Source of the DNA: an uncultured Thermoplasmata archaeon
Lineage (GTDB): Archaea > Thermoplasmatota > Thermoplasmata > Halarchaeoplasmatales > Halarchaeoplasmataceae
Length of the DNA stretch: 64,000 nt
Assembly (NCBI GenBank): GCA_964585175.1
Contig: CAZPCW010000001.1
Coordinates: forward strand, 12,314 to 76,313
Reading direction: 5' to 3'
The notes under the pieces are model-generated. The model was given only the letters and a program-made list of their open reading frames with translations, made no database searches and had not been told where the DNA came from. Shown here piece after piece: positions 1-25,113 of the stretch. The position numbers were made by a program, and so were the translations under genes. The first letter of the stretch is position 1, and each line of letters opens with the position of its first letter.

Positions 1-2369
1 CGGTATCTTTCATCCATCTCCGGCCAGTTGCATGTAAAGATACTATTTTCTTCTTCGTTCATATCTTGGTAAATTTTTTCACCGATATAAGGAGCAGACG
101 GGAATATCAATTTAGAGACTATATTTAAGCTCCTGTAGAAGACTTTTAAAATAGTCGATATATTTTCCTTGTCCTCATTTATTCTGGCTTTAGCTAAGCT
201 AAAATACCACTGGGCAAAGTCATCCAAGATGAATTCCTCTAATTCCTCTTCGGTATTATCGATTCTCCCGTTTTCATAGTGTTCTACCAATGTTTTTTTA
301 GTAGTTTCTAATTTCGACAATAACCACATATCTTCAATTTCTAGTTTTTCTAACTCAATCTCAGAGTCTAACTCTTTAGGTTTGATTTCGGTATCTTCAA
401 TTTGATCTTCAAAAAATTTGTAAAGGTTCCATAACACTCTTATCATTGGATGGGGCTCTTGGAGTTGTTCTCCCTCTATTCTCCTGTTATCACATAAATT
501 TGAATCAGATAAAAGATGTAATCTGAGAGTATCGTGACCCTGATTATCGACTAGCCCCTTCACATTTTTGTAATCTATCCCGCTAATCACCGTTCCCCTG
601 AATAATATCTTTTCAACACTAGTTTCTTCGAAAAGAGATAAAGATAAAGCTAAGTTAGCGGATATCAAACTATTTTTTTCGGGTTTTTCACCGATTAAAA
701 CTTTTCCCGGCCACCATGAGTGATAGCCATCCTCTTCCTGTGGATATCCCATCTGGGCCCAAGGAGAGACAGCTTGGAGGAACAAAGGACTTATCACCTT
801 GTGTTCACGATCCATCTCTTTTCCACATTCTGGACAATTCACTTCTATATCGTTGAGAACATTTGGGGTCACAGCCACTTCTATCTTATCCTCCATATTA
901 TCATCTTCTAGATCAAAATTTGATTTTTCACTTAAAGCTTCTCTATCTGAAGGAATAAGTGATTCTCCGCACTCACAAATCCAGAAGGGAAAAGAAACGC
1001 CCCAATTATTATCTCTAGTTATGATCCAATCATTCAATTTTAGTTCTTCATCAGACGGGAAAGTCTGGACTTTATCATTTAGATCCTCTTCCATATGTTC
1101 TTTGATCTCTTCGCCCTCTAAAAACCATTCTTTGTGAATGTGTTTAGTCATCTTACTTCTACAGGCGTCGCAGATCTCTATTTTTCTTTTTTCACGATCT
1201 TCCCAAAACAACAGTTCCTCAGATTTTAGATCGTCCAATATGACGTCTTCGTTCTGAAGAGCCGATAAACCAGAATATTTATTTTTTCTTGGACCTTTAT
1301 CAAAATATCCATTCTCTTTGATCGGGTCGTAAATATTCATATCTTTTTCTTCGGCCAATTCCCAGTGTTTCTCATCATATGCAGGGGTAAAAAATTCTAT
1401 CCCGCTTCCATTAACCTCTACACTTTCTGAAGTTATCACCTTTCTTTTGTTATCGCATTCAACTTCTCGCTTTTCAGGAATCTTTTTTCCTAACGGGTAT
1501 CTATAAGAGAGACCTTCTAACTGTTCACCTTTTACAGTCTTTAATATTTCATAACTTTTCCTTCCGGACTTTTCCATGATCTCTTCCACTTTTTCTCGCT
1601 GGACAACGAATTGCTCAATCTTTTTGTCCTCGCTAGTGGACTTTACTATAGAATAGTTACTTTCCTTATCTACCAATAAAGATAAACTGCTCGGGATTTT
1701 CCATATTTCGTTAATTTCCACTAAAAAATATCTCTCTTTTCCGCTTGCAAGAGGGATTTTAATTATTGCACTATTCTTTTGCTCTTCTCTTGTGGAGATT
1801 TCTGTAGAGGTGACTGGTATTTTACAATCGGGACACCATTTGACTGGTTTTTCCTTCTTTGTCAACAAATCTTTTTCCATCAATTCACTGATACTCCACC
1901 AAACGGAATCTATAAATTTACCGTAAATAGTTTTGTAGTCGAATTCGGATTTTGTCCATATCCCAAGTTGCTGAAGATGTTCTTCTGTGTCTTTCTCGAA
2001 CTCTTCAGCCATCTCTGACATGCTTTCAAAAATTTCATCTTCACTATCTATGGATGTTTTCAAACATTTTCGTCCTTTCTCCTTCAAAGCTAATTTTTCT
2101 ATCCTTAAACTCAACGGATCGAAACCAATACCGTTCCTTACATTAAATCCATGCATCCCCTTAAAACGAGCCCACACGTCATAGATGATATTTTCAAATA
2201 AATCATCCCAGCTGAACTCATCTTTAATTTGAAATGGAGGTCTTACCAAGTAGTAATTCCTACCGCCCTTCCTCGCCTCGCTTAATTCCTCATTGATATT
2301 TTTGGATTGCCAAAACTGAAGAATTTCCTCTTCCATCTCCTCAGGATTCAAATCATAGATATTTCCCAT
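1..2369 (-). CDS. Class Ia aminoacyl-tRNA synthetase of the isoleucyl-tRNA synthetase family, N-terminal about 790 aa (C-terminus lies beyond the window start); HIGH and KMSKS catalytic motifs are degenerate
   Basis: Hand translation of the minus strand from the ATG at 2367-2369: MGNIYDLNPEEMEEEILQFWQSKNINEEL...YYLVRPPFQIKDEFSWDDLFENIIYDVWARFKGMHGFNVRNGIGFDPLSLRIE. This is co-linear with the IleRS block PPxANGxxHIGHAL...ILKDII..R...M.G....GWDxHGLPIE, but HIGH is replaced by FSWD. Downstream come QLGIWTKSEFDYKTIYGKFIDSVWWSISELMEKDLL and KWCPDCKIP (the IleRS-type zinc knuckle). Around nt 480-600 I read ...FRGTVISGIDYKNVKGLVDNQGHDTLRLHLL where IleRS has HGF..DEKGRKMSKSLGNVVDP..GADALRL. The frame stays open to nt 1. 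It is absent from the ORF track because it runs off the window edge. Confidence 0.7.
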   Translation of the reverse strand, partial: MGNIYDLNPEEMEEEILQFWQSKNINEELSEARKGGRNYYLVRPPFQIKDEFSWDDLFENIIYDVWARFKGMHGFNVRNGIGFDPLSLRIEKLALKEKGRKCLKTSIDSEDEIFESMSEMAEEFEKDTEEHLQQLGIWTKSEFDYKTIYGKFIDSVWWSISELMEKDLLTKKEKPVKWCPDCKIPVTSTEISTREEQKNSAIIKIPLASGKERYFLVEINEIWKIPSSLSLLVDKESNYSIVKSTSEDKKIEQFVVQREKVEEIMEKSGRKSYEILKTVKGEQLEGLSYRYPLGKKIPEKREVECDNKRKVITSESVEVNGSGIEFFTPAYDEKHWELAEEKDMNIYDPIKENGYFDKGPRKNKYSGLSALQNEDVILDDLKSEELLFWEDREKRKIEICDACRSKMTKHIHKEWFLEGEEIKEHMEEDLNDKVQTFPSDEELKLNDWIITRDNNWGVSFPFWICECGESLIPSDREALSEKSNFDLEDDNMEDKIEVAVTPNVLNDIEVNCPECGKEMDREHKVISPLFLQAVSPWAQMGYPQEEDGYHSWWPGKVLIGEKPEKNSLISANLALSLSLFEETSVEKILFRGTVISGIDYKNVKGLVDNQGHDTLRLHLLSDSNLCDNRRIEGEQLQEPHPMIRVLWNLYKFFEDQIEDTEIKPKELDSEIELEKLEIEDMWLLSKLETTKKTLVEHYENGRIDNTEEELEEFILDDFAQWYFSLAKARINEDKENISTILKVFYRSLNIVSKLIFPSAPYIGEKIYQDMNEEENSIFTCNWPEMDERY

Positions 2370-2479
2370 ACTATCTTACATACATATCGTTCTTCTATAT
2401 TAAATTAATTTCCATCTTTCACGGCGAGAAATACTTTATAAGGATTGATAACCTTAAATATAAAAGGGAGTTCGGTGAT

Positions 2480-3418
2480 ATGAAACTAGATCAAATGCCA
2501 AAAGAGCTAAAAGAAAAAACCAGTCCCGATCATCTTTCAAAAAATGACCATGGTCCTAAGAGAGGAGATATACTAAAAAGACTAAAAAAAGAAATTAACA
2601 GTTTAAGAAATAAAGATCAGTCTAAGAAAAGCGAGGGTATAACGAAATATGAATACTATCCTGGAGAATTTAGAGAAGACCTGCAGAGAGTCAAATCGGT
2701 TCTAGAAGATATTTCTGATGAAAGAATAGATACTGATAACTTAGAAAAAAAGGTAGAACAAGTTCTTTCCCTTAAAGAAGATGGAAAGTACAAGAGAGCG
2801 ATACACTTAATCCATGAGCAAGTTCTAGATGTGGAGGTGATCGAAGATTTAGAAAGAGTTTTGAAAAAGACCGGTCACCTTGGAGAGAATGAACTCGATG
2901 ACGAGGAAGAAAAAAAATGGTATAAAAAGGTAAAAAAGATAAGAAAGAACTGTGAAAACGGCGAATATTTGAAGGCCTTAAACATCGCCGAAAGTTTGAA
3001 TGGTCTCAAAAGCAGAAGAACTGCCGGGAAAAGAGAAAAAACTTTTGAAAACAAGTTGGAAAGAGCGAGGAAGAAATTGAGAGTATCAAGATTTTCAGAT
3101 GTTGATCTTAAGGAGATAAAGGTACACATCAAGAAGGGCGTGGAAGCAGCAAAAAGAGGCAAGACAAAGAAGGCGATAGAAAACCTGGATAGAGGCATCG
3201 ACAAACTAGATGACGTGTTCTTATTCTCTTTAAAATTGGAAAAAGCCGAAACTGAACTCAAAGACTCCGATCTTTCTAAAGAGGCAAAAAGAAGATATGA
3301 GAAGAGATTGGATGATCTTCAAAACATGGGGAAAAGAGGTAACTTTGACAAAGCTTCTTCGAAAATAGATGATTTGATCTCTGAACTATCTAGAAAAGAA
3401 AAAGCCAAAAGTGGTTAA
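2480..3418 (+). CDS. Hypothetical Lys/Glu-rich coiled-coil protein
   Basis: 312-aa ORF with strongly charged composition (KELKEK, KKEINSLRNKDQSKK, LEKAETELKD) and no recognisable catalytic motif. It is divergent from the IleRS-like gene. Confidence 0.4.
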   Translation: MKLDQMPKELKEKTSPDHLSKNDHGPKRGDILKRLKKEINSLRNKDQSKKSEGITKYEYYPGEFREDLQRVKSVLEDISDERIDTDNLEKKVEQVLSLKEDGKYKRAIHLIHEQVLDVEVIEDLERVLKKTGHLGENELDDEEEKKWYKKVKKIRKNCENGEYLKALNIAESLNGLKSRRTAGKREKTFENKLERARKKLRVSRFSDVDLKEIKVHIKKGVEAAKRGKTKKAIENLDRGIDKLDDVFLFSLKLEKAETELKDSDLSKEAKRRYEKRLDDLQNMGKRGNFDKASSKIDDLISELSRKEKAKSG

Positions 3419-3444
3419 AGGATTTTCTATTATATCCACCCATA

Positions 3445-4803
3445 TCATGAACTATGGACGCTTTCACCTGAAACGTTTTCTGCGGCTTCCTTGATCGCTT
3501 CTGAATACGTTGGATGCGGATGGATCATCTCGCCCAGCTCATCTGCTTTCATATCTTTTTCCATAGCCGCAGAACACTCCATTATTATGTCGGTAGCGCC
3601 GGGACAGGCGAGATGAGCTCCCAATATATTATTTTCCGAATCGGACACTATCTTCGCAAACCCCATCCTTTTGCCCGTTGAAGAACCTCTTCCCGTAGCG
3701 GATATGGGGAACTTACCAACCCTAATCTCTCCTTTTTCGTTTTCAGCTTCTTCTTCCGTTAAGCCTATACTAGCCATTTCAGGATGGGTATATATCCCAG
3801 CTGGTATGTATGACCCGGAGAAACCTCTCGTTTCTTCGTCTAACATATCCTTTACGGCTATATCAGCCTGTTTAAAGGCAGCGTGAGCTAGCATCGCCTT
3901 TCCATTAACATCTCCAATAGCATAGACTCCGTCAACATTAGTTTCCATCTTATCGTTGACTTCGATCTCTCCATTTTTCCCGATTATATTTACTTCACAA
4001 TCCGGAGGAGTCGGTTTTCTACCTACAGCGCATAATACTTTTTCGACTTCAACTTCTTTTTCAGTTTCGCCCTCGATCTGGACTTTTACCGGATCTTTCC
4101 TCTCTACATCGGTCACTTTCGACCCAGTGTGGAATTTTATCCTTTTACGTTTCATCATCTTTTCAGCAGTTTCGCTCAAATCTTCATCCATATTAGGTAA
4201 CAATCTATCGAGTAATTCAACTATTATAACTTCAGACCCTAAAGAAGAGTAGGTATATGCCATCTCCAATCCTATATAACCTCCTCCAATTATCAAGAGA
4301 GAATCGGGAATTTCCTCAAGCGAAAGAGCCCCCTTACTTGAAATTACCGAGTTTCCATCGATTTTTATATCTGGAAGAGATATAGGTTCTGAACCCGTAG
4401 CTATGATCATATTGTCGGACTCTATAATCTCATCATCTACTTTAACTTCGTTTGAACTTATTACTTCTGCTTCCCCTTTAATGACTTCGATATCGTGTTT
4501 CTCGAATAGATTTTTTATAGCTTTTCTAGACATCTTTACAGCTCTTTCTTTTTTAGACATCACTTTTTCAAAATCGACTCCGTTAAATTCAGCTTTGATA
4601 CCTTCCCTTTTCGCGCCTTTTATGTTTTCGATTGTTCCTGCCGTAGAGAGCATAGCTTTTGAAGGTATACATCCATGGTTAGTACAGACCCCTCCGATCA
4701 CGTCTTCCTCAATCACTTTGACATCCATACCTCTTTTTGAAGCCAAAATAGACGCCACATATCCTCCCGGTCCAGTTCCTATAACAGTCAAACTCTTTCC
4801 CAT
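3445..4803 (-). CDS. lpdA: Dihydrolipoyl dehydrogenase (E3, pyridine nucleotide-disulfide oxidoreductase)
   Basis: Redox-active disulfide motif GGVCTNHGCIPSK, FAD/NAD Rossmann signatures (VIGTGPGGY, IIGGGYIGLE) and the C-terminal dimerisation motif THPEMASIGLTEEEA. The likely true start is the internal Met of MGKSLTVIG at 4801-4803, with a TATA-like TATATAAATAT about 30 nt upstream. The ORF-track start at 4860 is probably over-extended. Confidence 0.8.
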   Translation of the reverse strand: MGKSLTVIGTGPGGYVASILASKRGMDVKVIEEDVIGGVCTNHGCIPSKAMLSTAGTIENIKGAKREGIKAEFNGVDFEKVMSKKERAVKMSRKAIKNLFEKHDIEVIKGEAEVISSNEVKVDDEIIESDNMIIATGSEPISLPDIKIDGNSVISSKGALSLEEIPDSLLIIGGGYIGLEMAYTYSSLGSEVIIVELLDRLLPNMDEDLSETAEKMMKRKRIKFHTGSKVTDVERKDPVKVQIEGETEKEVEVEKVLCAVGRKPTPPDCEVNIIGKNGEIEVNDKMETNVDGVYAIGDVNGKAMLAHAAFKQADIAVKDMLDEETRGFSGSYIPAGIYTHPEMASIGLTEEEAENEKGEIRVGKFPISATGRGSSTGKRMGFAKIVSDSENNILGAHLACPGATDIIMECSAAMEKDMKADELGEMIHPHPTYSEAIKEAAENVSGESVHSS

Positions 4804-4957
4804 GATATCGGTTATACAATCTCTGTTTCGATATTTATATAGTTTGGTTTGCTTATTCAAAATTCATTTAGTGCCAAGACCAATCTATAATCCATAAATA
4901 TTAATAATAGTTCGTTAATTACAGATGCGATAAGAGTTTATATGAGGCGATGAAACT

Positions 4958-9728: not shown

Positions 9729-12131
9729 ATGAGGCCCTTGGGAATCTTCGTTGCCTTGATATTGATCACCTCGATTTTAACAGCAGGAGCCTTACCTAAG
9801 GCTATGGGAAGTGGTGAAGGCGCCCCCAATAGGGTCTATGAAGGAGATATGGAAGAAGAGTTTGAAGAGATAAATGAGTTCGAATCTCCCGGGATTTGGA
9901 GTGATAGACACGGTGTGACCTTTAAAAACTCAACCTCTAGAAATATGTCTACGGACATAGATGCAAGGGGTGATGTCGATATAGGTTGGGAAGATAATAG
10001 AAGGGGTAATTGGAATATATATTATGTTAAACTGGATAATCATGATGGCGAAAAGCTGATCAATGATTATAGAGTGACAGATAATGAGAAAAAATCTGTG
10101 AATCCAAAAATCGTTTCATATTCAGATAACATATACGTAGTTTGGGAAGAATTATCCGATGGCACCTGGGAACTGTATTTTTCCAAATTGCGATATTCGG
10201 ATGAAGAGGTAACGTCAATAATAGAAAGAAAACGTGTAGCCTCGCTGGGAACACCAGGTCCTAAAGAATACACTTTCGTAAGGGGTAGAGATACTAGTTT
10301 TCATCTGATCTATGAAAGAGAGAAAGACGGTAGACAGAATATATTTTACAGGAGAATAAACGGAAGAGGAGAAAACATAATATCTCCATTTCAGATAACT
10401 GAAACTTCAAATCCGTCCTACGATCCCAAACTAAAACTTACCGAGAACGGAGAATTACATCTTCTCTGGTTGGAACCTATAGAAAGGAACAACGGAATAT
10501 TTTACAAAAAGATAGACTACGCTGGAAATACGCACGTCAATAGAAAAAGATTGACAGTTGTAAATAGGTTGGATAGATACGCGTTAGGAAAAGATCGTGA
10601 AGGAAACCTTCATATGGTATTCGATGACGATAGGTATCACGAGTACAAAAGAGACGTAATATATCAAAAACTGAGCTCAGATGGAAAAATCCTTATCGAC
10701 GACTCTGTGATCACTGCTAGAGATGACGATACTAACTCTTTCTTACCCTCGATATGTAAAGGGAGAAAAGGGTTCATGTACGTTTCCTGGAGTGACAGTA
10801 GAGACTATCAGGCATTGGAAGAAGGTAAAAAAAATCTATCTGAAACCCCTCATGATATTTATGTCCAAAAGATAGATTTAAATGGTGAAACGGTGAGACC
10901 AGACAGAAGAGTAACAGGAACTTTTTCATACTCAGCTAACCCGATTTTATTCACTGATAATGAAAATCAACAGCAATTGATTTGGGGGGACTCAAGACGA
11001 GGGGTATTAGATATCTATCATAAAAAGACTGTCAAACCTGATATCACCGTAAATGACTTCGATATTGGGCCTGTCAGCCCCGAGTTTAACTCAACGGTCG
11101 ATGTTACTATTAAATTAGAAAATATAGGTCAGTCTTCGATCGAAACTAATGGTAGATTGTATATAGGAGAGGGTCGAGACGAATTGATAAATGAGTTTAA
11201 TATCTCATTGCCTTCCGAGGCGAAAAAAACAGTTTCATTTAATTTTACCGCAAAAAGAAAAGGTGAACAAAACCTTACTTTCGTAGTTAATGAAGATGAG
11301 GAGATTACGGAAAAAAATTATGATAATAACCTCGCTCACTCTCAGATATTTATCGGTTATTATGAGTTGAGTTTGGATATGATAGATGAATATAAATCTG
11401 TAGATCCAGGAGACGGAACCGAGTTCAGTTACAGCATAACTAACGATGGTAATGTTCCACAAGATGTCGAAATGATCTTTGAGTCCCCTAAGAAGATAGA
11501 AGTCGATCAAGATACTAATAAATCTACCTTGGATAGTGGAGACACTGAAAGATATAACTTTACTGTGAACACAAGTGCGGGTCAGATAGCGGGAGAATAT
11601 GAAATAAAGCTGATAGTCGAGTCTTTAGATAGAGCAGAATTGAACCTCACAGAAAATTTCACTCTCAATGTCAATCCGATCTATGATTTTTCACTTTCTG
11701 CTGAGAAGAAGAGTATCTCTGATCCAGGAAAAATGAACTATACAGTCGATCTATCGGTTACTAACTTGGCTAACACCGATCAAGAGATATTTGTATATGT
11801 ATTAGAGGGAACCAATTACGCGGCCGTAGAAGGAGGTTTGATGACTCTAGGGCCCGACGAAGAGGGAAACGCAGTACTCAATTTAACTAATTATAAATCG
11901 ATAGAGGCTCAAGAACTTGAAATAACAGTGATGGCCGAATCGATGGACAATGGAGTGGATAATGGAAACCTAACTAAAACGGAAACAATAACGATAGAAG
12001 GAGAAGAGCAAAAAAAAGAATCATCTGAGTCCTGGCTCGATATGATCCCATGGTTCTGGATAGGAATAGCTCTTGCTGTAATCTTGGGTATCTTCGTAGC
12101 CCTCAGGATTTATTACACTTACATTTCCTAG
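9729..12131 (+). CDS. Large cell-surface glycoprotein: N-terminal signal/TM, beta-propeller-like repeats, CARDB-like Ig domains and a C-terminal TM anchor
   Basis: N-terminal hydrophobic segment LGIFVALILITSILTAG. Repeated WxxY blades (GNWNIYYVKLD, NIYVVWEELSDGTWELYFSKL, RQNIFYRRINGRGEN, NNGIFYKKIDYAG). CARDB-like block ITVNDFDIGPVSPEFNSTVDVTIKLENIGQ. C-terminal anchor WFWIGIALAVILGIFVALRIYY. There are more than 12 N-x-S/T sequons. Confidence 0.55.
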   Translation: MRPLGIFVALILITSILTAGALPKAMGSGEGAPNRVYEGDMEEEFEEINEFESPGIWSDRHGVTFKNSTSRNMSTDIDARGDVDIGWEDNRRGNWNIYYVKLDNHDGEKLINDYRVTDNEKKSVNPKIVSYSDNIYVVWEELSDGTWELYFSKLRYSDEEVTSIIERKRVASLGTPGPKEYTFVRGRDTSFHLIYEREKDGRQNIFYRRINGRGENIISPFQITETSNPSYDPKLKLTENGELHLLWLEPIERNNGIFYKKIDYAGNTHVNRKRLTVVNRLDRYALGKDREGNLHMVFDDDRYHEYKRDVIYQKLSSDGKILIDDSVITARDDDTNSFLPSICKGRKGFMYVSWSDSRDYQALEEGKKNLSETPHDIYVQKIDLNGETVRPDRRVTGTFSYSANPILFTDNENQQQLIWGDSRRGVLDIYHKKTVKPDITVNDFDIGPVSPEFNSTVDVTIKLENIGQSSIETNGRLYIGEGRDELINEFNISLPSEAKKTVSFNFTAKRKGEQNLTFVVNEDEEITEKNYDNNLAHSQIFIGYYELSLDMIDEYKSVDPGDGTEFSYSITNDGNVPQDVEMIFESPKKIEVDQDTNKSTLDSGDTERYNFTVNTSAGQIAGEYEIKLIVESLDRAELNLTENFTLNVNPIYDFSLSAEKKSISDPGKMNYTVDLSVTNLANTDQEIFVYVLEGTNYAAVEGGLMTLGPDEEGNAVLNLTNYKSIEAQELEITVMAESMDNGVDNGNLTKTETITIEGEEQKKESSESWLDMIPWFWIGIALAVILGIFVALRIYYTYIS

Positions 12132-12248: not shown

Positions 12249-12851
12249 CTAAAGGTGCATTATATCTTTGTGGTACACGGAAGGAGTCACTAAAGTCTCT
12301 ATCGTACTTGCTCCATGTTTTGGAGTGAACTGTATATTCATCTCGGACTGTGGACCGAGGTTAAATCCTACTTTAGTGGTGTTGACTGTTACCTGTAGTG
12401 TAGTACCACTAGCGATTAATGGATTATCTTCAGCGTCGAACTCGCCTTCAGGATCCATAAGGGCTTCCGCTGTATAGTTGTGCTCACTAGTTTCCGTTGC
12501 ATTGTATTCTAAAGCTGTTTGATTATTTCCGTCATCGACGTGTATCAATAGGTTTTCAAGATTTTGAGGTGGTGTGCCGGGTCCAACTCCTATATTGAAA
12601 TGTATTTTTCTTAGATCCGTTCCGTTATTGTCTCTAATTCCGAGGATCGACCTTACCTTGATGTAAGTCGAGACCTCGGCCATCGCTTCTTCCGCGGACT
12701 GTTCGGCCTGCTGTTTTAACATCGTCGCTGTTCGGATGAAAACACCTGCTGACACTGCAGACACTAGAACTATCGCTATAAAGATCATCAGGGTTCCCAC
12801 ACCCATCATAGCGTTTTCGTCTTCTTCGGTATTCCTTTTTATACGCCTCAT
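12249..12851 (-). CDS. arlB: Archaellin (ArlB/FlaB family), divergent paralog 1
   Basis: Class III signal peptide plus hydrophobic N-terminus MRRIKRNTEEDENAMMGVGTLMIFIAIVLVSAVSAGVF and the archaellin C-terminal beta-domain ending QFTPKHGASTIETLVTPSVY. Confidence 0.8.
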   Translation of the reverse strand: MRRIKRNTEEDENAMMGVGTLMIFIAIVLVSAVSAGVFIRTATMLKQQAEQSAEEAMAEVSTYIKVRSILGIRDNNGTDLRKIHFNIGVGPGTPPQNLENLLIHVDDGNNQTALEYNATETSEHNYTAEALMDPEGEFDAEDNPLIASGTTLQVTVNTTKVGFNLGPQSEMNIQFTPKHGASTIETLVTPSVYHKDIMHL

Positions 12852-13552
12852 AAATTATCCGCCTCTTAGACACCCGGTCAAGGGCAATTTCGAACAGGCG
12901 CAATCAGTTCCTGTTCTCGTTATGAAATATCATTATCGATATAAATAGTAGTTTCGAAAGTGGTATCATTCTTGATAAAAAACACAAATTATCATCTTTG
13001 AAAATCAATATCGAAGGTAAATGATTCAAGAATCTATTTCATTTTGATTTTTCATCCGGGTCATTATCAATATTGAAAATACAGCAATATGTTTATTTAC
13101 TATGATGTAATAATCATATTTGATAACATGTCCCTAGGATCCCAGGATTCTGTGGATTCTTCGGTCCTGGAATTTGAAAAGTTTCTTGGAATTGGATGGG
13201 AACCTATTTCGGTCAGGATGGAAAGAACGAAGAAAGGACCTAATCACTTGGAACAAACGATAACGATCTCCTGCATTCGAAGGAAACAGGCGGTCGAAGG
13301 CGAAAAGCAGTTCTGTGGGCGGTCTAATCTTCGTTTGGAGTTTTTGATGGAAGATGGAAAAAGTTCTTCCACACAGGATTAAAAACCTCTTTTCTCTTTA
13401 TTTTTGTGCCTTATTTGTTTCATGAAAATCATTTTTGATTTTAAGTAGTGAAAATGTTATTTAGATAGAAAGTATCTTTTCTATCTTAAAGATATAAAAT
13501 ACTAATAGTATTAAAAATAATAAGAAAATCAGTAAGATACAAATACCACTTT

Positions 13553-14047
13553 TTGTCTTATGTAATATTGATGTCAAAGAAAAACATCAAGGTGAGCGAA
13601 GTAGTTTATGATAGACTTGTAGCTGAAAAAGAGGGAAATGAGAGTTTTGACGACACTTTGAGAAGGATACTGGAACTTTCCCCGGACATCCAGGATTTAG
13701 CGGCATATTATCCGGATGAGATGAGAGATATGTCGAAGGAGATAGTAGATTTTATTTTCCAGATGGATGATTTCAAAAGGAACGTGAATAGGGGAAGTGA
13801 ATGTGATACGTTAAAATTCATACCGGAAGATTCCGACTTGGCTGTCGCCCAGATACAGTTTTGGGAGGACAGTTTGAAGATAATGTACAGGAACAAGAAC
13901 GGAGATATGGATTGGATAACTTCTCTCGTTGTAGGGAACGATAAAGATACGAATTTCGGTTACGATCTCGATGGTGAATTCGACGAGTTAAAGGAGGAAA
14001 TCAAAAGAAAAATAAAAGGTGCAATAAGAAAATGGGCCGGTTCATGA
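13553..14047 (+). CDS. Hypothetical protein with an N-terminal CopG/RHH antitoxin-like domain (COG1753-like)
   Basis: KNIKVSEVVYDRLVAEKEGNESFDDTLRRILE resembles the small archaeal antitoxin-like family (motif KtItVsdEvYekL...g.eSFSdvI.rLLe). The likely start is the internal Met at 13571. A further 110 aa downstream are acidic and of unknown function. The gene sits inside the archaellin array on the opposite strand. Confidence 0.35.
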   Translation: MSYVILMSKKNIKVSEVVYDRLVAEKEGNESFDDTLRRILELSPDIQDLAAYYPDEMRDMSKEIVDFIFQMDDFKRNVNRGSECDTLKFIPEDSDLAVAQIQFWEDSLKIMYRNKNGDMDWITSLVVGNDKDTNFGYDLDGEFDELKEEIKRKIKGAIRKWAGS

Positions 14048-14053
14048 TAAAAA

Positions 14054-14108
14054 GAGAGGTAAAATCCCCGGGCCTAGGGACATGTTTTATCACCGGGGTT
14101 TACCTCTC
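14054..14108 (+). terminator. GC-rich extended hairpin immediately 3' of the 13553..14047 ORF
   Basis: GAGAGGTAAAATCCCCGGG-(20 nt loop containing CCTAGG)-CCGGGGTTTACCTCTC. It is a 10-bp perfect outer stem plus a 6-bp inner stem, in an otherwise AT-rich intergenic region. Confidence 0.4.
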
Positions 14109-14313
14109 CCATTCATTATGAATACAATCAGGGACCGGTGAGTTATAGGGACGTATTGTTTATCTAGATTGAAGTTTATAAAGCTTTGATGATTATTATC
14201 AGTTTGAATAATTTGGTAAAAGTTATTGGATTGTTCTTTATAGAAAATTAGTGATTCAGAAGAGAATAAAAAAGCAAAAATAGAGAAAGTAGAAAGGGTT
14301 TTTAATCTCAGCT

Positions 14314-14936
14314 TTATAGATCTACCATCCGCTCAGTTATAACAGGCGGTGTGACTACTTCTTCATAGGTCGGCGTGCCGTGTTTTGGTATGATCCTTAT
14401 GTTGAGCGGTTCCTGTGTTCCTACTGATCCATCTATCGCATTGTCTAGATTGACGGTGATATTGTACAAGTCCCCAGATTCTACGTACTGGTCCTCACTA
14501 CCATCCTGCTCTTTGATAACTTCCCAATCATAGTGTGTGTTTGTGTTCACTGGACTGGTAGCAGAGCCATCAGTACCATCGGGTCCCTGTAGGTTTACTT
14601 CCTGAGTGTTGTTCTGCACTTCGATTACAGTTTGATTGAGGTCCTGCCCTGTGGCTCCGGCTGCTAAACTCACCTTCAGATATATCGCATCTATTTCACC
14701 ATCAGCGGTGCCAGTGGCGGCATCCAAATCTTGACCGTAAATCTCCTGCACCTTGAAAGAGCTGGACACTTCTCTGATCGCTTCGTCACCTGTCCTCTCA
14801 GCCTGCTACTGCAGCTGATTAGCGGTATCGATGAGTACACTCGCGGCTACAGCCGCCACTAAGACCATCGCTATGAACACTATGAGCGTGCCTACGCCCA
14901 TCGCACCTTTGTCGTCTTCTCTCTTTATCCGCTCAT
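14314..14936 (-). pseudogene. arlB: Archaellin (arlB) pseudogene with an in-frame TAG nonsense codon and a start-proximal frameshift
   Basis: Homologous along its whole length to the neighbouring archaellins. It keeps the promoter, the SD (GGAGG) and an ATG at 14934-14936, but a 1-nt deletion near codons 2-6 puts the ATG out of frame (ATG AGC GGA TAA). Where the intact paralogs have CAG in [10 protein letters not shown], this copy has TAG at 14806-14808 (minus strand). The ORF track recovers only the 151-aa distal fragment 14314..14769. Confidence 0.7.
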
Positions 14937-15116
14937 ATTTGGTATTTTCCTCCTATTCGAATACAGCATGATAATCATCACTGTTTCTCAATATATAATT
15001 AAAGAATTAATTATACTGATCCATATTCAACAGCGATAATCCAAGGTGATAAAACTTAGACACATTTCTATGATCTAAGAAATTTATTATTTGAGCTTAG
15101 AAAAGACAAAAATAGA

Positions 15117-15145
15117 AAAAAGTAGAAAGGGTTTTTATTTCATTT
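15117..15145 (-). terminator. Conserved archaellin 3' element AAAAACCCTTTCTAC followed by a T-tract (transcript sense)
   Basis: The plus-strand motif AGTAGAAAGGGTTTTT recurs within 30 nt after the stop of six archaellin copies (about 14288, 15121, 15917, 16688, 17523, 18306). Oligo-U tracts follow on the mRNA. Confidence 0.5.
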
Positions 15146-15760
15146 TTACAGATCTACTAAGGTGCTTGTTATCGTTGGCGGAGTGACTACCTGCTCGTAA
15201 GTCGGCGTGCCGTGCTTCGGTATTATGTTTATATCGAGTTGTTCTTGTGTTCCTATTGTTCCACCCAGATCATTTTGTAGATTGATAGTGATCTTGTAAA
15301 GATCACCACTTTCGACATACTGGTCTTTATCGCCGTCCTGTTCTTTGACAACTGACCAGTCATAGTGGATTTCGTCAAGATTCTCACTAGCGGCTCCATT
15401 TCCGTTTCCATCGGCTCCTTGTAAATTGACTTCTGCACTCTTATTCTGTAACTGCACTATCGTCTGATTGAGATCTTGTCCGGTCGCACCAGCTGCTAGT
15501 CCTATTTTCAAAGTTATATTCTGGATTTCGTTTGCATCAGTAGATTCATTCGTTTCTCCAAAAACATCCTGTACCTGGAACGAGCTGGACACTTCTCTGA
15601 TCGCTTCGTCACCTGTTCTCTCTGCCTGCTGCTGTAGCTGGTTCGCGGTATCGATGAGTACACTTGCCGCAACAGCGGCCACCAAGACCATCGCTATGAA
15701 CACTATGAGCGTGCCTACGCCCATCGCACCTTTGTCGTCTTCTCTTTTTATCCTTCGCAT
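15146..15760 (-). CDS. arlB: Archaellin (ArlB/FlaB), major-type paralog
   Basis: [57 protein letters not shown] is a class III signal peptide (KGA|MGVGTL) followed by the conserved hydrophobic helix. The C-terminus is [27 protein letters not shown]. An AGGAGA SD lies 8 nt upstream. Confidence 0.85.
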   Translation of the reverse strand: MRRIKREDDKGAMGVGTLIVFIAMVLVAAVAASVLIDTANQLQQQAERTGDEAIREVSSSFQVQDVFGETNESTDANEIQNITLKIGLAAGATGQDLNQTIVQLQNKSAEVNLQGADGNGNGAASENLDEIHYDWSVVKEQDGDKDQYVESGDLYKITINLQNDLGGTIGTQEQLDINIIPKHGTPTYEQVVTPPTITSTLVDL

Positions 15761-15786
15761 AGTTATTATCTCCTTTCGGATACAGC

Positions 15787-15818
15787 ATGATAATCATCTC
15801 TTTTTATCATTATATAAT
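15787..15818 (-). promoter_or_regulatory. Archaellin promoter/leader: TATA box ATTATATAAT (15809-15818), palindrome ATGATAATCAT (15787-15797), SD AGGAGA (15769-15774)
   Basis: The same arrangement is conserved upstream of the copies starting at 14936, 16531 and 17308, with the palindrome at 14968-14978, 16558-16568 and 17334-17344. A variant TCGATAATCAC sits at 18163-18175. Confidence 0.6.
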
Positions 15819-15940
15819 TTGATAAACAATTATGCTGACTCATATTCAATAGTGATAATCCGAGATGATAAAACACAGATAAACATCTACAATATAAAAA
15901 TCTAAAATAGAAAAAAGTAGAAAGGGTTTTTAGTTCATTT

Positions 15941-16531
15941 CTACAGATCAACTAGCTCGGTGGTTATCGTTGGCGGAGTGACTACCTCTTCGTAGGTAGG
16001 TGTTCCGTGTTTTGGTATTATATTTATGTCTAGATCCGCTTGGGTTCCTAATTGGCCTACCGTGTTTTCAAGATCGATAGTTATATTATAGAGATCGCCG
16101 GATTCTACGTACTGGTCTGAACTACCTTCTTGTTCTATGATCGAACTCCAAGAATAGTTATTTGAACCCGGACCTTCTCCCTCTGCACCTGCAGCAACTA
16201 AGTTTTGTTCACTCGTGTTAGTTTGTATTTGAATAACGGTTTGATTGAGGTCCTGTCCCGTAGCTCCTGCTGCTAAACCAACCTTCAATGTCAGTTCATT
16301 GAGTTCACCACTGTCAGAAGTATCCCTACCGAACACGTCCTGCACCTGGAACGAGCTGGATACTTCCCTGATCGCTTCGTCACCTGTTCTCTCTGCCTGC
16401 TGCTGTAGCTGGTTCGCAGTATCGATAAGTACACTTGCCGCAACAGCGGCCACTAAGACCATCGCTATGAACACTATGAGCGTGCCTACGCCCATCGCAC
16501 CTTTGTCGTCTTCTCTCTTTATCCTTCGCAT
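15941..16531 (-). CDS. arlB: Archaellin (ArlB/FlaB), major-type paralog
   Basis: The first 70 codons and the upstream 170 bp are nucleotide-identical to the 15146..15760 copy. The central variable domain differs. Confidence 0.85.
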
Positions 16532-16711
16532 AGTTATTATCTCCTTTCGGATACAGCATGATAATCATCTCTTTTTATCATTATATAATTTGATAAACAA
16601 TTATGCTGACTCATATTCAATAGTGATAATCCGAGATGATAAAACACAGATAAACATCTACAATATAAAAATCTAAAATAGAAAAAAGTAGAAAGGGTTT
16701 TTAGTTCATCT

Positions 16712-17308
16712 CTACAGATCTACTAGCTCGGTGGTTATCGTGGGCGGCGTGACAACTTCTTCGTAGGTCGGTGTTCCGTGTTTCGGTATTATGTTGATGT
16801 CTAAGTCTGCCTGAGTACCTATCGAGTCTATATCAGTTGCACTAAGATCGACCGTTATATTATAGAGATCGCCGGATTCTACGTACTGGTCTGAACTACC
16901 TTCCTGTTCTATAATAGATGTCCATGCATAGTTATTTCCGATAGGATCAGCTCCTTCAGATGTGGCAGCCACCAGATTCACTTCACTTTCATTACTCTGG
17001 ATCTGAATTATGGTTTGATTCAGATCCTGTCCAGTTGCTCCAGCTGCTAGACCTACCTTCAAAGTTATCCTATCAATTTTATGATCACTCGCATCTAAAT
17101 TTCTACCGAACACGTCCTGCACCTTGAAAGAGCTGGACACTTCTCTGATCGCTTCGTCACCTGTTCTCTCTGCCTGCTGCTGTAGCTGGTTCGCGGTATC
17201 GATGAGTACACTTGCCGCAACAGCGGCCACCAAGACCATCGCTATGAACACTATGAGCGTGCCTACGCCCATCGCACCTTTGTCGTCTTCTCTTTTTATC
17301 CGTCTCAT
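16712..17308 (-). CDS. arlB: Archaellin (ArlB/FlaB), major-type paralog
   Basis: Same conserved N-terminus and C-terminus as the neighbouring copies, with a variable central domain containing N-x-S/T sequons. Confidence 0.85.
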
Positions 17309-17545
17309 ATTTTATCTCCTTTCGAATACAGCATGATAATCATCTCTGTTTTTCACTATATAATTTAATAAACAGTTATATCGGAAGGTATTCAATTTTG
17401 ATAATCTTCTTCTATAAAACGACCTTACTTATTCAGAGTGGTCTACCTTTAAAATCAGAATTGGGTTTTTATGATTATTCAAGAAGTCAGGAGATCTAAA
17501 AAGATCTAAAATAAAGTAATTAAAAGAAAGGTTTTTTAAATTAGC

Positions 17546-18136
17546 TTAGAGATCGACTATTTCACTAGTTACCGTAGGAGGTACAACTACTTCTTCATAT
17601 GTAGGTGTCCCGTGTTTCGGTATTATGTTTATATCTAGATTAGCCTGTGTTCCTAAAGATCCTACCGTGTTTTCAAGATCGATGGTTATATTGTAGAGAT
17701 CGCCGGATTCTACGTACTGGTCTGAACTACCTTCTTGTTCTATGATCGAACTCCAGGAATAGTTATTGGATCCCGGACCTTCACCTTCTGCGCCGGCAGC
17801 AACTAAGTTTTCTTCGGTAGTGTTACTCTGAACTTGAATAACAGTCTGGTTAAGATCCTGTCCAGTTGCTCCAGATGAAAGGGCAACTTTTAGGGTTGCT
17901 CTTTCTATTTCATTATCATCATCGATGTTTCTGCCAAATGCATCCTGTATTTTGAACGAGCTAGACACTTCACGTATCGCTTCGTCACCTGTTCTCTCAG
18001 CCTGTTGTTGTAACTGGTTAGCGGTATCGATGAGTACACTTGCGGCTACTGCAGCCACTAAGACCATCGCTATGAACACGATGAGTGTTCCGACGCCCAT
18101 CGCGCCTTTGTCGTCTTCTCTTTTTATTCTTCTCAT
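17546..18136 (-). CDS. arlB: Archaellin (ArlB/FlaB), major-type paralog
   Basis: The ORF-track start at 18187 is over-extended. The true start is the Met of [11 protein letters not shown] at 18134-18136, which has an AGGAGA SD 8 nt upstream like its siblings. Confidence 0.8.
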
Positions 18137-18330
18137 GGTTATTATCTCCTTTCGGATACAGCATCGATAATCACCTTCCTTATTCATTATATATATTCGC
18201 TAGTGATTATCTCTCAGCGTAAATCAATCTTGATAACGGGAGTTGATAGTCTATGAAAACGAAGATTACTCTTATATATTGAAGAAGCCTGTAAAAAAGA
18301 TATAAAAAGAAAGGGTTTTTTTTCGGTTAT

Positions 18331-18933
18331 TCACAGATCCACAATCTTTGTGGTTAAAGTAGGCGGCGCCACTAGCTCTTCATATGTGGATGTTCCATGC
18401 TTTGGTATGATCTGTAAATCTACTTCGGACTGTGTTGTCAGGTTGTCTATACTATCTATTTCTGTCAGATTTATACTGAGTGCATATAGATCACCTGGTT
18501 CAACAAATGAATTTGTGTTATCACTTTCTTGTGTTATTATTGGTTCCCAGTAGTAATGAGTTGCGTTTGCTTCTGGATTTTCTGCTGCACCTTGAAGATT
18601 TGTTTCACCGCTAGCAGTCATGATCTGAATCACTGTTTGGTTCAAGTCCTGAGACGTAGCACCAGCCGCTAGTCCGATTTTCATCGTTACATTGACTATC
18701 ACTCTTTCTCCATCCGACATATCTGTTTCACCGAATGTGTCCTGCACTTGGAAAGAGCTGGATACTTCCCTGATCGCTTCGTCACCTGTTCTCTCTGCCT
18801 GCTGCTGTAGTTTGTTCGCGGTATCTATAAGTACACTGGCTGCCACTGCTGATACTAGTACCATGGCTATGAATATGATGAGCGTGCCTACGCCCATCGC
18901 GCCTTTGTCGTCTTCTCTTTTTATCCTTCTCAT
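18331..18933 (-). CDS. arlB: Archaellin (ArlB/FlaB) paralog
   Basis: [57 protein letters not shown]; the central domain is more diverged. Confidence 0.8.
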   Translation of the reverse strand: MRRIKREDDKGAMGVGTLIIFIAMVLVSAVAASVLIDTANKLQQQAERTGDEAIREVSSSFQVQDTFGETDMSDGERVIVNVTMKIGLAAGATSQDLNQTVIQIMTASGETNLQGAAENPEANATHYYWEPIITQESDNTNSFVEPGDLYALSINLTEIDSIDNLTTQSEVDLQIIPKHGTSTYEELVAPPTLTTKIVDL

Positions 18934-19225
18934 AGTTACTATCTCCTTTCGGATACTCTAGTTTAATCACCTTCCTAATTGATTATATAAATTCGGAACC
19001 AATTATCCTTTAAGTTTTCAAATATCAATTATATAAGGAGGTTATAACGATAAAGAATCACGCGCGTTTACAAACTATGTTTATTAAGCTAAAAAGTCAA
19101 TTGTAATTATCAAGCACAATAACATCGAGTAAACGCTTATATCTGATAAGAATATTAATTTAATAGTCTTAGCAGGCCTATTACAGATTACAACCCTTTT
19201 TTCCCTGAAGGCTATTATCTAGAGA

Positions 19226-19259
19226 GATAATCACGACATTAAATATAATATGATAATCG
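19226..19259 (+). promoter_or_regulatory. Promoter of the divergent arl accessory operon: TATA TTAAATATAATA (19239-19250) flanked by GATAATCAC (19226-19234) and TGATAATCG (19251-19259)
   Basis: The TATA box lies about 30 nt upstream of the ATG at 19275 (leaderless or short leader). The GATAATC core is the same as in the archaellin leader palindromes. Confidence 0.45.
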
Positions 19260-19274
19260 AAACTGTTTATCATA

Positions 19275-19952
19275 ATGCTTGAGGACTTAAGAGAGACAGA
19301 GCTATTTCAAGGGTCTTCATCGTTCAGACGGGCCCGGTTGTCCGATGACGAATCTGCTTCCACAGGAGTCAGTTCATTGATGCTTCTGATCGCCACGATA
19401 ATGATCACGGCGATAGTGGCCGGGGTCCTGGTAGATACGGTGACCAAGCTCCAAAATCAGTCGGAGAAAACCGCTGACCAGGCTATATCGGACGTGAGCA
19501 CGGGGATGAACACTCTTTCATTGACAGGAGATAGAAAGGAAAACGGGAATTCGAGTAAACCAACATCAAATGAAATAGAGGTGGTGGAAGTGATAGTTAG
19601 ACTTCAGTCGGGAAGCAATCCTGTAGATATGGATGACGTCGTGACTATAATTAACGACGGTAACACAACAAGTGAATTGCTCCATAATCCAGATACGAAT
19701 GATCCGACGGGAGCTGATGATACTAATTTCACTACAAAAGTTCTTAGAGATCCTGAAGGGGACTACGCGGATTCCAATGTGATGAATCAGGGTACTTTGG
19801 TAAAGATCTACATAGACGCTAACCTTACCGGTCTTCAACTGGACACCAATACCCCTGTTGAAATCAAAATTATACCAAATACCGGCCAATCCACTCAGAT
19901 ATCCTTCACCACTCCTTCAGTCTATGCTTCAAGGAAGGTGAATCTGAAATGA
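19275..19952 (+). CDS. Archaellin-like protein (divergent ArlB/ArlA-type) heading the arl accessory operon
   Basis: Archaellin-type hydrophobic N-terminus GVSSLMLLIATIMITAIVAGVLVDTVTKLQNQSEKTADQAISDV and archaellin-like C-terminus EIKIIPNTGQSTQISFTTPSVYA. Its central domain (DDGN.T...DPEGDY) resembles paralog 1 at 12249 more than the five major copies. Confidence 0.6.
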   Translation: MLEDLRETELFQGSSSFRRARLSDDESASTGVSSLMLLIATIMITAIVAGVLVDTVTKLQNQSEKTADQAISDVSTGMNTLSLTGDRKENGNSSKPTSNEIEVVEVIVRLQSGSNPVDMDDVVTIINDGNTTSELLHNPDTNDPTGADDTNFTTKVLRDPEGDYADSNVMNQGTLVKIYIDANLTGLQLDTNTPVEIKIIPNTGQSTQISFTTPSVYASRKVNLK

Positions 19953-20014
19953 TAAGGAAGAGTTTAAATAAGGTTAGATATCAAATTTATATTTACGCGC
20001 GAAGGTGGTAAGAT

Positions 20015-24651: not shown

Positions 24652-24663
24652 GAGGTAAAAAAT

Positions 24664-25101
24664 ATGGGATTCTCTATATCGAGTTCGCACTTGGTCTTTT
24701 TCTTGGCCTCGATGGTAGTGGCATCTACGCTAGCAGGAGTATTTATCACTTCTACCGATACTATTTCCAACGCGATAAGATCAAGAGAGGACTCGTTGAG
24801 CGAAAGGATGAAAAGCGATATCTCTATAATCAATGACCCAAACAATATGCCGAACGATCCATTGACAGTATATGTAAAAAATACCGGTTCGACAAGGATG
24901 AATATGACTGATGTAAAGATACTTGTTAATGGAACGCTTCAACAGACTTCTTCCATCCAACTGGTAGATAGTGACGATAACTATTGGTCACCCACAGATG
25001 TTATAAAGGTGGAAGTAGATATTAATTTACCAGCTGGCGATCACTGGCTAAAAGTTGTGGCTTCTCACCAATCGGAAGATACCTTAGAATTCACTATATA
25101 A
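24664..25101 (+). CDS. arlG: ArlG (FlaG) archaellum stator/accessory protein
   Basis: 145 aa with N-terminal TM helix MGFSISSSHLVFFLASMVVASTLAGVFI and a FlaF/FlaG-family beta-sandwich region. Its position after arlF is canonical. Confidence 0.65.
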   Translation: MGFSISSSHLVFFLASMVVASTLAGVFITSTDTISNAIRSREDSLSERMKSDISIINDPNNMPNDPLTVYVKNTGSTRMNMTDVKILVNGTLQQTSSIQLVDSDDNYWSPTDVIKVEVDINLPAGDHWLKVVASHQSEDTLEFTI

Positions 25102-25113
25102 AAGGTGGTATAG

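Follow-up and report, generated by a model that had tools for sequence, protein, structure and literature searches.

An isoleucyl-tRNA synthetase homolog without its catalytic and editing motifs, carrying a DUF835 tail, in Thermoplasmata of soda-lake and hypersaline sediments

The DNA analysed here, called the window throughout, is a stretch of 64,000 nucleotides from contig CAZPCW010000001.1 (assembly GCA_964585175.1) of an uncultured Thermoplasmata archaeon. At its left edge lies a gene related to isoleucyl-tRNA synthetase (IleRS). The gene is on the minus strand, starts with an ATG at 2369 and stays open through the left edge, with its last full codon in the window ending at base 3, which gives 789 codons. 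The plus strand of window positions 1-2400 contains no long open reading frame (ORF), and none covers the region. The full-length protein, P0001, has 1340 amino acids and is 100% identical to the 789-residue part encoded in the window. The N-terminal IleRS stretch described in the first-pass annotation of this DNA is real, though the ORF on which it was based is cut by the window edge and 551 more residues lie beyond it. Retrieval of the full protein added a DUF5915, an HhH and a DUF835 domain to the known part (Table 1).

The colinearity with IleRS noticed at first was confirmed beyond doubt by Pfam, by alignment to proteins of known structure and by fold matches. Pfam recognized tRNA-synt_1 (E 8.8e-35) and Anticodon_1 (E 6e-20) in the window part, and phmmer against the PDB aligned residues 9-787 colinearly with IleRS2 of P. 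megaterium (8c9d) and IleRS of T. thermophilus (1ile), at E ~1e-55. An AlphaFold2 model of residues 1-1045 had a predicted local distance difference test score of 87.5 and a predicted template modelling score of 0.83. In a Foldseek search this model matched IleRS2 8c9d with E 8e-74 over ~1070 columns, IleRS ranking ahead of ValRS and LeuRS, and it superposed full-length on IleRS2 8c8v, in which the C-terminal tRNA-binding domain is resolved, and on the yeast IleRS-tRNA-Ile complex 8wnd. In the predicted model of residues 1044-1340, HhH is well folded, the linker is disordered and DUF835 is an alpha/beta domain. The score of the protein against the NCBIfam IleRS equivalog TIGR00392 was 326.1 bits, compared with a cut-off of 621.4.

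Motifs were surveyed in a MAFFT alignment of 23 members of this protein family and 20 canonical IleRS. The HIGH motif was missing in all 23 family members; FQIKDEFSWDDL stands in its place, and the family has its own consensus for the segment, PP.x.KD..nWDELY...YDVW. In the canonical set HIGH was present except in three N-terminally truncated fragments and in P0030, a separately degenerate protein. KMSKS was found in 0/23 members, the shortened loop reading SGIDYKNVKG. The DVWFDSG and EGxDQxRGWF motifs of the pocket were unrecognizable in every member and the His of GWDxHGLP was lost too, so that Asp84, the residue by which canonical enzymes bind the amino group of the substrate, and Pro45 are the sole survivors of the amino-acid/adenylate pocket. 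The editing site was no better preserved. Its T-rich WTTTPWT peptide is replaced family-wide by [ED][ED].W[MK] (EINEIWK in the window protein), and GTGxVH reads GSGIEF in the window protein, with His replaced by Phe or Leu across the family and the editing Asp by a conserved His-Trp (23/23 in each case). The two structural Zn sites, with all four of their Cys pairs, are present in every member, including the WCPxC knuckle seen in the first pass, and the degenerate positions have gained consensus sequences specific to the family.

The strings that had been quoted as degenerate versions of HIGH, GWDxHGLPIE and KMSKS were thus found at the expected positions, and their loss extends to all 23 members. 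The degeneracy is wider than that account reported. It also takes in the adenylate pocket and all of the signatures of the CP1 editing domain, where the T-rich peptide, the His of GTGxVH and the Asp, whose conservation had been left to be checked, are replaced in every member. The protein is predicted to be dead at both catalytic sites yet structurally maintained. The earlier statement that it cannot activate isoleucine is almost certainly right. The class I signatures are gone, and the gene is under selection, not decaying. A role as a trans factor for editing only was ruled out because all three CP1 editing signatures are replaced in all members.

It is very improbable that the protein is a functional IleRS, with non-canonical catalytic residues elsewhere, serving as the sole housekeeping enzyme. 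NCBI labels partly eroded relatives as IleRS, and no other IleRS was seen in the examined loci of the same genomes, both of which would fit such an enzyme. However, every member has lost HIGH, KMSKS, WFDSG, GxDQxRGWF, the His of GWDxHG and the editing residues alike, the protein reaches only half of the equivalog cut-off, and the family sits on a very long branch: its identity to any canonical IleRS is 23%, whereas at least 30% is shared by canonical enzymes from different domains. We know of no class I synthetase that works without these motifs.

Full-length intact copies of the gene were found, in a scan of species-representative genomes, in ~28 halophilic Thermoplasmata metagenome-assembled genomes (MAGs) representing ~28 species from soda-lake and hypersaline sediments. 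These include Great Salt Lake bins, the T1Sed10/B1Sed10/CSSed series and Ca. Natronoplasma, and the clade has been described as the order 'Ca. Halarchaeoplasmatales' (PMC11332174). Mean pairwise identity is 48-55% across all IleRS subdomains, including the dead core and the dead CP1 domain. The best-conserved part of the body is the C-terminal tRNA-binding domain DUF5915 (55%), and the most constrained part of the whole protein is DUF835, with 76% mean pairwise identity and 38% of its columns invariant. From this pattern, the whole type-2 IleRS scaffold, C-terminal tRNA-binding domain included, is judged to be under purifying selection. A sequencing or assembly error that would restore HIGH and KMSKS had been named as grounds for rejecting the original observation. 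Positions 1-4913 of the window are 100% identical in DNA sequence to an independently assembled Logan contig, the same organism is present in a second assembly (GCA_905333585.1), and the same losses recur in ~28 species. Degeneration of every catalytic motif is what a decaying pseudogene or an artefact would show, but the uninterrupted ORF of 1340 codons, full-length in so many species, the invariant residues specific to the family, the even conservation of the subdomains and the identical independent assembly refute that explanation, the probability of which is negligible.

A search of 1.84 billion representatives indicated where the protein may have come from. Many IleRS-like proteins of 1170-2330 amino acids ranked above ordinary IleRS, and they were sorted by motif inspection and Pfam into three groups with a common IleRS-DUF5915-(HhH)-DUF835 architecture. 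Group A is fully dead and consists of the window family and deeper branches. Group B has fully intact motifs and tRNA-synt_1 scores of 395-445 bits. Group C is partly eroded, with KMSKS lost and HIGH weakened, and has extra TPR, Zn-ribbon or HhH inserts and lengths of up to 2329 amino acids. One group B protein, P0193 (MBX8637091.1), is the annotated IleRS of Ca. Sysuiplasma acidicola and scored 933.4 bits against TIGR00392, above the cut-off. When a profile of the intact forms was used, DUF835 was present in 120/120 best matches. Among these are IleRS from Methanomassiliicoccus and Methanomassiliicoccales, and others come from genomes that have contigs on the Mb scale. IleRS-HhH-DUF835 is therefore, by its motifs and distribution, the apparently active ordinary IleRS of many Thermoplasmata, among them Methanomassiliicoccales, Ca. 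Sysuiplasma and many genomes labelled 'Thermoplasmata archaeon'.

In a neighbor-joining tree of the body, group B was basal, group C intermediate and group A on a long branch, A being nested in C and C in B, with bootstrap values of 100 for A, 100 for A+C and 50 for A+B+C. DUF835 identity is 75% in group A compared with 72% in group B, while body identity falls from 64% in B to 50% in A. The dead and intact forms have the DUF835 motifs WLSNV..RPK.LEKLSL..EYLITNN.F.TVL.LIQS..DQVA in common, and the domain is clearly orthologous across the three groups. The window protein is very probably a dead derivative of a fused IleRS. In the simplest history, the ancestral Thermoplasmata IleRS would have gained the tail of HhH and inactivated KaiC-like domain ('iKaiC'); in some lineages a second IleRS would then have taken over charging, and the fused copy would have lost catalysis and kept tRNA recognition and the tail.

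Other degenerate forms were seen as well. The partly eroded giants P0190, P0191, P0194-P0197 and P0199 (1436-2329 amino acids) have an altered T-rich peptide and TPR, Zn-ribbon or multiple HhH inserts, and at least two of them, MEW5937698.1 and MBA3046026.1, are annotated as 'isoleucine--tRNA ligase' by NCBI. P0030 (961 amino acids, found in Logan only), an independently degenerate IleRS-like protein without DUF835, reads PDLQDAL where HIGH would be and GISAHS where KMSKS would be; its counterpart of the T-rich peptide is WTENFWS, and it contains GSGIEQ. It seems to represent a pseudo-IleRS lineage of its own.

Residues that read the tRNA have fared differently from the catalytic ones. In the structure of yeast IleRS with tRNA-Ile, Arg736 and Arg739 of the anticodon-binding domain read C32 and A35/U36, and the R739A variant is inactive; Arg999, in the C-ter C domain, is a discriminator of N34 specific to IleRS of the eukaryote/archaeal type (PMC11685878). 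The yeast residues were mapped, through an alignment with human IleRS, onto a second alignment containing 22 dead-family members and a canonical set. The position of Arg999 (P0001 973) is Arg in 22/22 dead-family and 21/21 canonical proteins. The position of Arg739 (P0001 727) is Arg in 16 and Lys in 6 of the dead family, and a neighboring Arg (P0001 729) is Arg in 21 and Lys in 1; both are Arg in 22/22 canonical proteins. At the position of Arg736 (P0001 724) the dead family has Lys in 13, Ser in 7 and Ile in 2, and the canonical set Arg in 13 and Lys in 9. At that of Leu1004 (P0001 978) the counts are Leu 18, Met 2 and Ile 2 for the dead family and Leu 18, Phe 2 and Tyr 1 for the canonical set, and at that of Gln996 (P0001 970) Lys is found in 22/22 dead-family and Gln in 21/21 canonical proteins. 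Because the anticodon readers were selectively retained while the catalytic residues were wholly lost, binding of tRNA-Ile has rather probably been kept.

In the literature DUF835 is labelled 'iKaiC' and counted among the output domains of archaeal response regulators, as a KaiC-like domain that has been inactivated (PMC5847659). No Walker A motif, GxxxxGK[ST], was found in any of 152 DUF835 domains from dead, eroded and intact forms. A PDB profile search with the C-terminal region matched the HhH part only, with no KaiC match for DUF835, and an hhalign comparison of DUF835 with the window's own ArlH (PF06745) gave a probability of 0.3%, which is not significant. In the predicted model, DUF835 has a Walker-less KaiC/RecA-like (KaiC/FlaH-like) fold, and because the profile comparison with ArlH was not significant, the relation to KaiC is one of fold only, which is in keeping with the published label. 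In the genomes with dead copies, DUF835 also comes after REC, PAS-PAS, RsbRD_N-PAS and Zn-ribbon regions and before bactofilin. The domain is therefore a module common to signalling or assembly proteins, with the IleRS scaffold in the position of an input domain.

Several features of the tail and of related DUF835 loci were recorded in passing. The HhH domain and acidic linker (P0001 1044-1160) resemble the N-terminal extension of haloarchaeal ribosomal protein L32e (E 2.7e-9), and the same HhH region has a weaker likeness to the N-terminal domain of RadA/Rad51 (E 1e-6), HhH followed by a RecA fold being the domain order of RadA. In P0020 a C2H2-like zinc finger, YLCPHEDCEKTYQTVGWVERHYRDKH, is inserted into the acidic linker that joins HhH to DUF835 and is otherwise disordered. 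The deep-branching MAG BLK2-2.bin.13 encodes two dead IleRS paralogs, separated by ~6 kb in which the gene of a REC-DUF835 response regulator is located. In the first paralog DUF835 is followed by a Zn-ribbon, and the ORF of the second extends past the end of the locus.

Taken together, these features would on balance be best accommodated by a derivative of a fused IleRS that is not an enzyme but binds tRNA-Ile and works through DUF835 as a sensor or scaffold; that its output through DUF835 is sensory or regulatory is put forward more tentatively. The first-pass annotation had proposed that the protein was kept for tRNA binding, editing or regulation. Of these, tRNA binding and regulation fit the anticodon arginines and the DUF835 fusion, and editing does not fit the replaced CP1 residues. 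As envisaged, the protein would neither make nor edit Ile-tRNA. tRNA-Ile would dock through its anticodon arm, and the flexible acidic linker would couple this binding to protein-protein assembly or signalling mediated by DUF835, the partners probably being KaiC-type ATPases or other DUF835 proteins. The role would be that of a tRNA-Ile sensor or a regulatory subunit, like the HisRS-like domain of GCN2 or HisZ, and aminoacylation would be supplied by a second IleRS, which is expected because Ile-tRNA is universally needed. A more specific proposal is that the fusion wires the charging status of tRNA-Ile or the supply of isoleucine into KaiC-type signalling, the dead copy being a dedicated sensor of uncharged tRNA-Ile; this is speculative and rather unlikely. 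Within it, assembly of DUF835 with KaiC/ArlH-like rings, or with DUF835 proteins linked to REC, PAS or bactofilin, as the sole output is equally doubtful.

A number of observations weigh against a tRNA-Ile-binding sensor or scaffold. tRNA binding is deduced from a handful of conserved basic residues; P0001 itself carries Ser at the position of Arg736 and Lys at that of Arg739, and the deep member P0183 has neither the Arg739 nor the Arg999 equivalent. Any binding partner of DUF835 is putative, and its relation to KaiC is one of fold only. The monophyly of all fused forms has a neighbor-joining bootstrap of only 50%, and long-branch effects are possible. The 95 positions conserved solely in the dead family are partly grouped where the active and editing sites used to be, which leaves room for a new ligand site or new chemistry. 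DUF835 is also fused to bactofilin and FlaC, which suggests a module for structure or assembly as much as one for signalling. Finally, the proposal requires a working IleRS elsewhere in the genome, and no canonical one was found in the 64-kb window or in ~600 kb of loci from genomes with the dead copy.

The best canonical match is P0024, from GCA_964436705.1, in which HLGT and KMSKS are intact. P0024 is probably from a halophile, because it is as acidic as the dead family (isoelectric point 4.6), but it is not assignable to any genome with a dead copy: the tetranucleotide composition of its contig correlates at 0.70 with that of the window and at no more than 0.80 with that of any locus with a dead copy, compared with 0.91-0.95 for pairs from the same MAG. 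It is a candidate for the kind of housekeeping IleRS these genomes would need, tied by composition to none of them. The whole-genome shotgun prefixes or samples of P0127, P0128, P0186, P0189, P0061, P0056 and P0021 likewise match no dead-copy MAG. P0024 is a stand-alone protein that clusters with Thermococcales IleRS in the tree; its contig has 36% G+C and belongs to a hypersaline-type assembly series, and the gene (L002 / L039) adjoins GlyRS and a NuoE/F-type hydrogenase or formate-dehydrogenase module.

The fusions to bactofilin and FlaC count in favor of a second interpretation, in which the protein is a purely structural scaffold, DUF835 serving as an assembly or localization module and the dead body as a bulky subunit or docking platform without tRNA sensing. 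A KaiC/ArlH-type ring or a cytoskeletal element might, for example, be the anchor to which it tethers translation factors or a multi-synthetase-like complex. One such fusion is encoded in the ArlC/D/E position of the archaellum cluster beside ArlH, DUF835 is as well conserved in dead as in active forms and so has a role independent of catalysis, and constraint on the body is even across subdomains instead of focused on the tRNA surface. A mere spacer, however, would need neither the invariant N34-discriminating R973 nor the anticodon-domain arginines kept beside lost catalytic residues, and DUF5915, a tRNA-binding domain, is the best-conserved part of the body. A scaffold without tRNA sensing is considered unlikely.

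The family-specific residues could instead belong to an enzyme with new chemistry, or to a small-molecule binding protein, built on the remodelled Rossmann and CP1 pockets. The 95 positions include K49, D50, W54, Y58 and Y63, where HIGH used to be, H335-W in place of the editing Asp and, within CP1, an invariant N363-K-Y-S-G-x-S block. Asp84 and Pro45 of the amino-acid pocket have been retained. A transferase dependent on aminoacyl-tRNA would have a precedent in the IleRS homolog SbzA, which transfers Ile from Ile-tRNA (PMC6331615). SbzA is no model for the dead family, however, because it keeps HIGH and KMSKS and the dead family has neither. In addition, no nucleotide-binding signature is left, the loop of KMSKS is shorter than in canonical enzymes, the body has a higher rate of evolution than that of the intact forms, and the neighbors are housekeeping genes, with no biosynthetic gene cluster. 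New chemistry of any kind is judged improbable. An SbzA-like transferase in particular was considered unlikely, with HIGH and KMSKS lost and genes for ketopantoate reductase, an MtaB-like protein and lipoamide dehydrogenase as neighbors.

These neighbors were compared in 25 related loci (Table 1). The 110-bp A+T-rich region between the dead IleRS gene and the divergent K/E-rich ORF is presumably a shared promoter region. The K/E-rich ORF had no Pfam or NCBIfam match, and homologs of 182-1080 amino acids occupy the same position in ~10 of the 25 loci, so that its description as unrelated in the first-pass annotation is plausible. A dihydrolipoyl dehydrogenase gene lies upstream of the dead IleRS in 17 of them. 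The loci of the intact forms P0186 and P0189 have other contexts, without the conserved ApbA/MtaB neighborhood. A tRNA-modification gene next to the dead IleRS fits the theme, but neighbors by themselves do not establish function, and synteny was not relied on because the wider region is syntenic too and the MtaB-like gene is convergent. An Rfam scan of the window gave no match, so no tRNA or leader element lies nearby, and no defence family in PADLOC-DB was matched at E <= 0.01.

Elsewhere in the window lies a complete archaellum (arl/fla) cluster. It has seven archaellin genes, five of them tandem paralogs that are 62-87% identical, and its DUF835-bactofilin fusion within an archaellum operon is unusual in itself.

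Table 1. Location of the dead IleRS, its domains and motifs, and other features of the window and related loci
Feature	Location	Strand	Remarks
N-terminal 789 residues of P0001	window 3..2369	-	Rossmann core, CP1 editing-like domain, both Zn sites, KMSKS region, most of the anticodon-binding helical domain
Remaining 551 residues of P0001	beyond left window edge		rest of anticodon-binding domain, DUF5915, HhH_5, E/K-rich linker, DUF835
tRNA-synt_1 (PF00133)	P0001 16-620		Pfam
Anticodon_1 (PF08264)	P0001 680-825		Pfam
DUF5915 (PF19302)	P0001 844-1043		Pfam; type-2 IleRS C-terminal tRNA-binding domain
HHH_5 (PF14520)	P0001 1056-1106		Pfam; (HhH)2 domain
E/K-rich linker	P0001 1107-1190		acidic, variable
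DUF835 (PF05763)	P0001 1205-1332		Pfam; 103.3 bits, gathering threshold 33.1
HIGH equivalent, PPFQIKDEFSWDDLFEN	P0001 44-60; window 2190..2240	-	neither His nor Gly of HIGH
GWDxHGLPIE equivalent, GFDPLSLRIE	P0001 82-91; window 2097..2126	-	His lost, Asp84 kept
Structural Zn site 1, WCPDC	window 1824..1838	-	partner CDAC at 1161-1172; kept in all members
Editing T-rich peptide equivalent, EINEIWKIP	window 1692..1718	-	canonical WTTTPWTIP; every threonine gone
Editing GTGxVH...D equivalent, GSGIEFFTPAYDEKHW	window 1362..1409	-	His to Phe, catalytic Asp to His335-Trp
Structural Zn site 2, WICECG ... CPEC	window 825..983	-	kept in all members
KMSKS equivalent, ISGIDYKNVKGLVDN	P0001 595-609; window 543..587	-	no KMSKS; loop 7 residues shorter than in canonical IleRS
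Anticodon-binding-domain helix, AQWYFSLAKARI	P0001 719-730; window 180..215	-	K727 equivalent to yeast Arg739; R729 conserved
Intergenic region, A+T-rich, 110 bp	window 2370..2479	.	between dead IleRS gene and divergent K/E-rich ORF
Divergent K/E-rich ORF, 312 aa	window 2480..3418	+	
2-dehydropantoate 2-reductase (ketopantoate reductase, ApbA)	L001:6625-7524, just beyond left window edge		58 bp downstream of dead IleRS, same strand; 24/25 loci
tRNA ms2t6A37 methylthiotransferase (MtaB-like)	L001:7550-8761, just beyond left window edge		MiaB-like-B, 412 bits; convergent; 19/25 loci
CARDB-domain protein, 800 aa	window 9729-12131	+	
Archaellum (arl/fla) cluster	window 12249-30751		complete
Five tandem archaellin paralogs	window 15146-18933		
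FlaC_arch-DUF835-bactofilin protein, 1147 aa	window 20015-23458		ArlC/D/E position, beside ArlH
Weak archaellin-like ORF	window 23443-24651		
ArlH/KaiC	window 25114-25809		
ArlI/T2SSE	window 25811-27460		
ArlJ/T2SSF	window 27476-29134		
Second T2SSE ATPase	window 29141-30751		
Beta-propeller protein, 856 aa	window 36303-38873	+	
AAA_16 + TPR protein, 815 aa	window 50109-52556	-	STAND/MalT-like
Dead IleRS paralog, first	L021:9905-15463		MAG BLK2-2.bin.13
REC-DUF835 response regulator	L021:17223-18113		MAG BLK2-2.bin.13
Dead IleRS paralog, second	L021:21661-24098		MAG BLK2-2.bin.13

A clade of full-length IleRS predicted to be dead in both synthesis and editing, spread over ~28 species, adds to the known pseudo-synthetases and is the first one found for archaeal IleRS. 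The survey also indicates that the housekeeping IleRS of much of the Thermoplasmata, including the gut-associated Methanomassiliicoccales, bears a conserved Walker-less domain of the KaiC/RecA fold. The dead clade can be seen as a natural experiment, in which the function of the tail is uncoupled from aminoacylation and matters enough to be retained without it. There is also a practical consequence for reconstructions based on MAGs, since the label 'isoleucine--tRNA ligase' on eroded members can obscure whether a real IleRS is there or not. If the protein does sense tRNA or amino acids, it would offer a concrete, testable entry into the question of how archaea sense amino-acid starvation. Were it wired into a KaiC network, it would be an archaeal counterpart of GCN2 or of stringent-type sensing, and the dead copy a natural separation-of-function allele.

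The closest functional analogy is GCN2, in which a HisRS-like domain binds uncharged tRNA and reports amino-acid starvation to the fused eIF2alpha kinase. In both proteins a synthetase-derived domain with degenerate catalytic motifs is fused to an effector. The HisRS-like domain of GCN2, unlike the dead IleRS, is of class II, has a kinase as effector and is eukaryotic, and for the dead IleRS binding of tRNA is only predicted. A second analogy is HisZ, an inactive HisRS paralog that acts as the regulatory subunit of ATP-phosphoribosyltransferase. Like the dead IleRS it is a synthetase paralog without aminoacylation, in its case a ligand-sensing regulatory subunit; it differs in being of class II and unfused, in sensing an amino acid and not a tRNA, and in having no anticodon-binding domain. 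HisZ is listed among the aminoacyl-tRNA synthetase paralogs in a review (PMC9437257).

Within the archaea, the class Ia duplicates LeuRS-I of the Sulfolobaceae and LeuRS2 of the Halobacteria bind their cognate tRNA and aminoacylate it barely or not at all; their CP1 is disrupted and their C-terminal region acidic (PMC9437257). Unlike the dead IleRS, LeuRS-I still forms leucyl-adenylate, has no DUF835/KaiC-like fusion and is derived from another synthetase. IleRS has been reported to belong with the most stable synthetases, those with the lowest tendency to paralogy (PMC5388404). For IleRS, a 2022 review on synthetase duplications gives only IleRS2 and SbzA, both of them enzymes (PMC9437257). 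SbzA is a bacterial IleRS homolog from a biosynthetic gene cluster, an Ile-tRNA-dependent aminoacyl transferase with weak charging activity (PMC6331615); like the dead IleRS it is an IleRS-derived paralog, and its non-translational role depends on tRNA-Ile. No archaeal pseudo-IleRS and no IleRS-DUF835/KaiC fusion was found described in the literature searched, though a prior mention is not fully excludable. The remark in the first-pass annotation that no archaeal pseudo-IleRS had been described agrees with this search and with the 2022 review.

The tail has its parallel in the REC-DUF835 and PAS-DUF835 proteins (PMC5847659), in which the same C-terminal module comes after an input domain at the N-terminus; these proteins are encoded in the same genomes. 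In the dead IleRS, by contrast, the input is a synthetase scaffold of 1050 amino acids, and the DUF835 of the IleRS lineage forms a distinct, highly conserved orthologous group. The nearest relatives remain the intact IleRS-(HhH)-DUF835 proteins of the Thermoplasmata, which have the same domain order (with HhH usual), the orthologous DUF835 and the same anticodon-reading arginines. These intact fused enzymes keep HIGH, GWDxHGLP, the T-rich peptide, GTGxVH-D, WFDS and KMSKS, whereas the dead family has lost them all.

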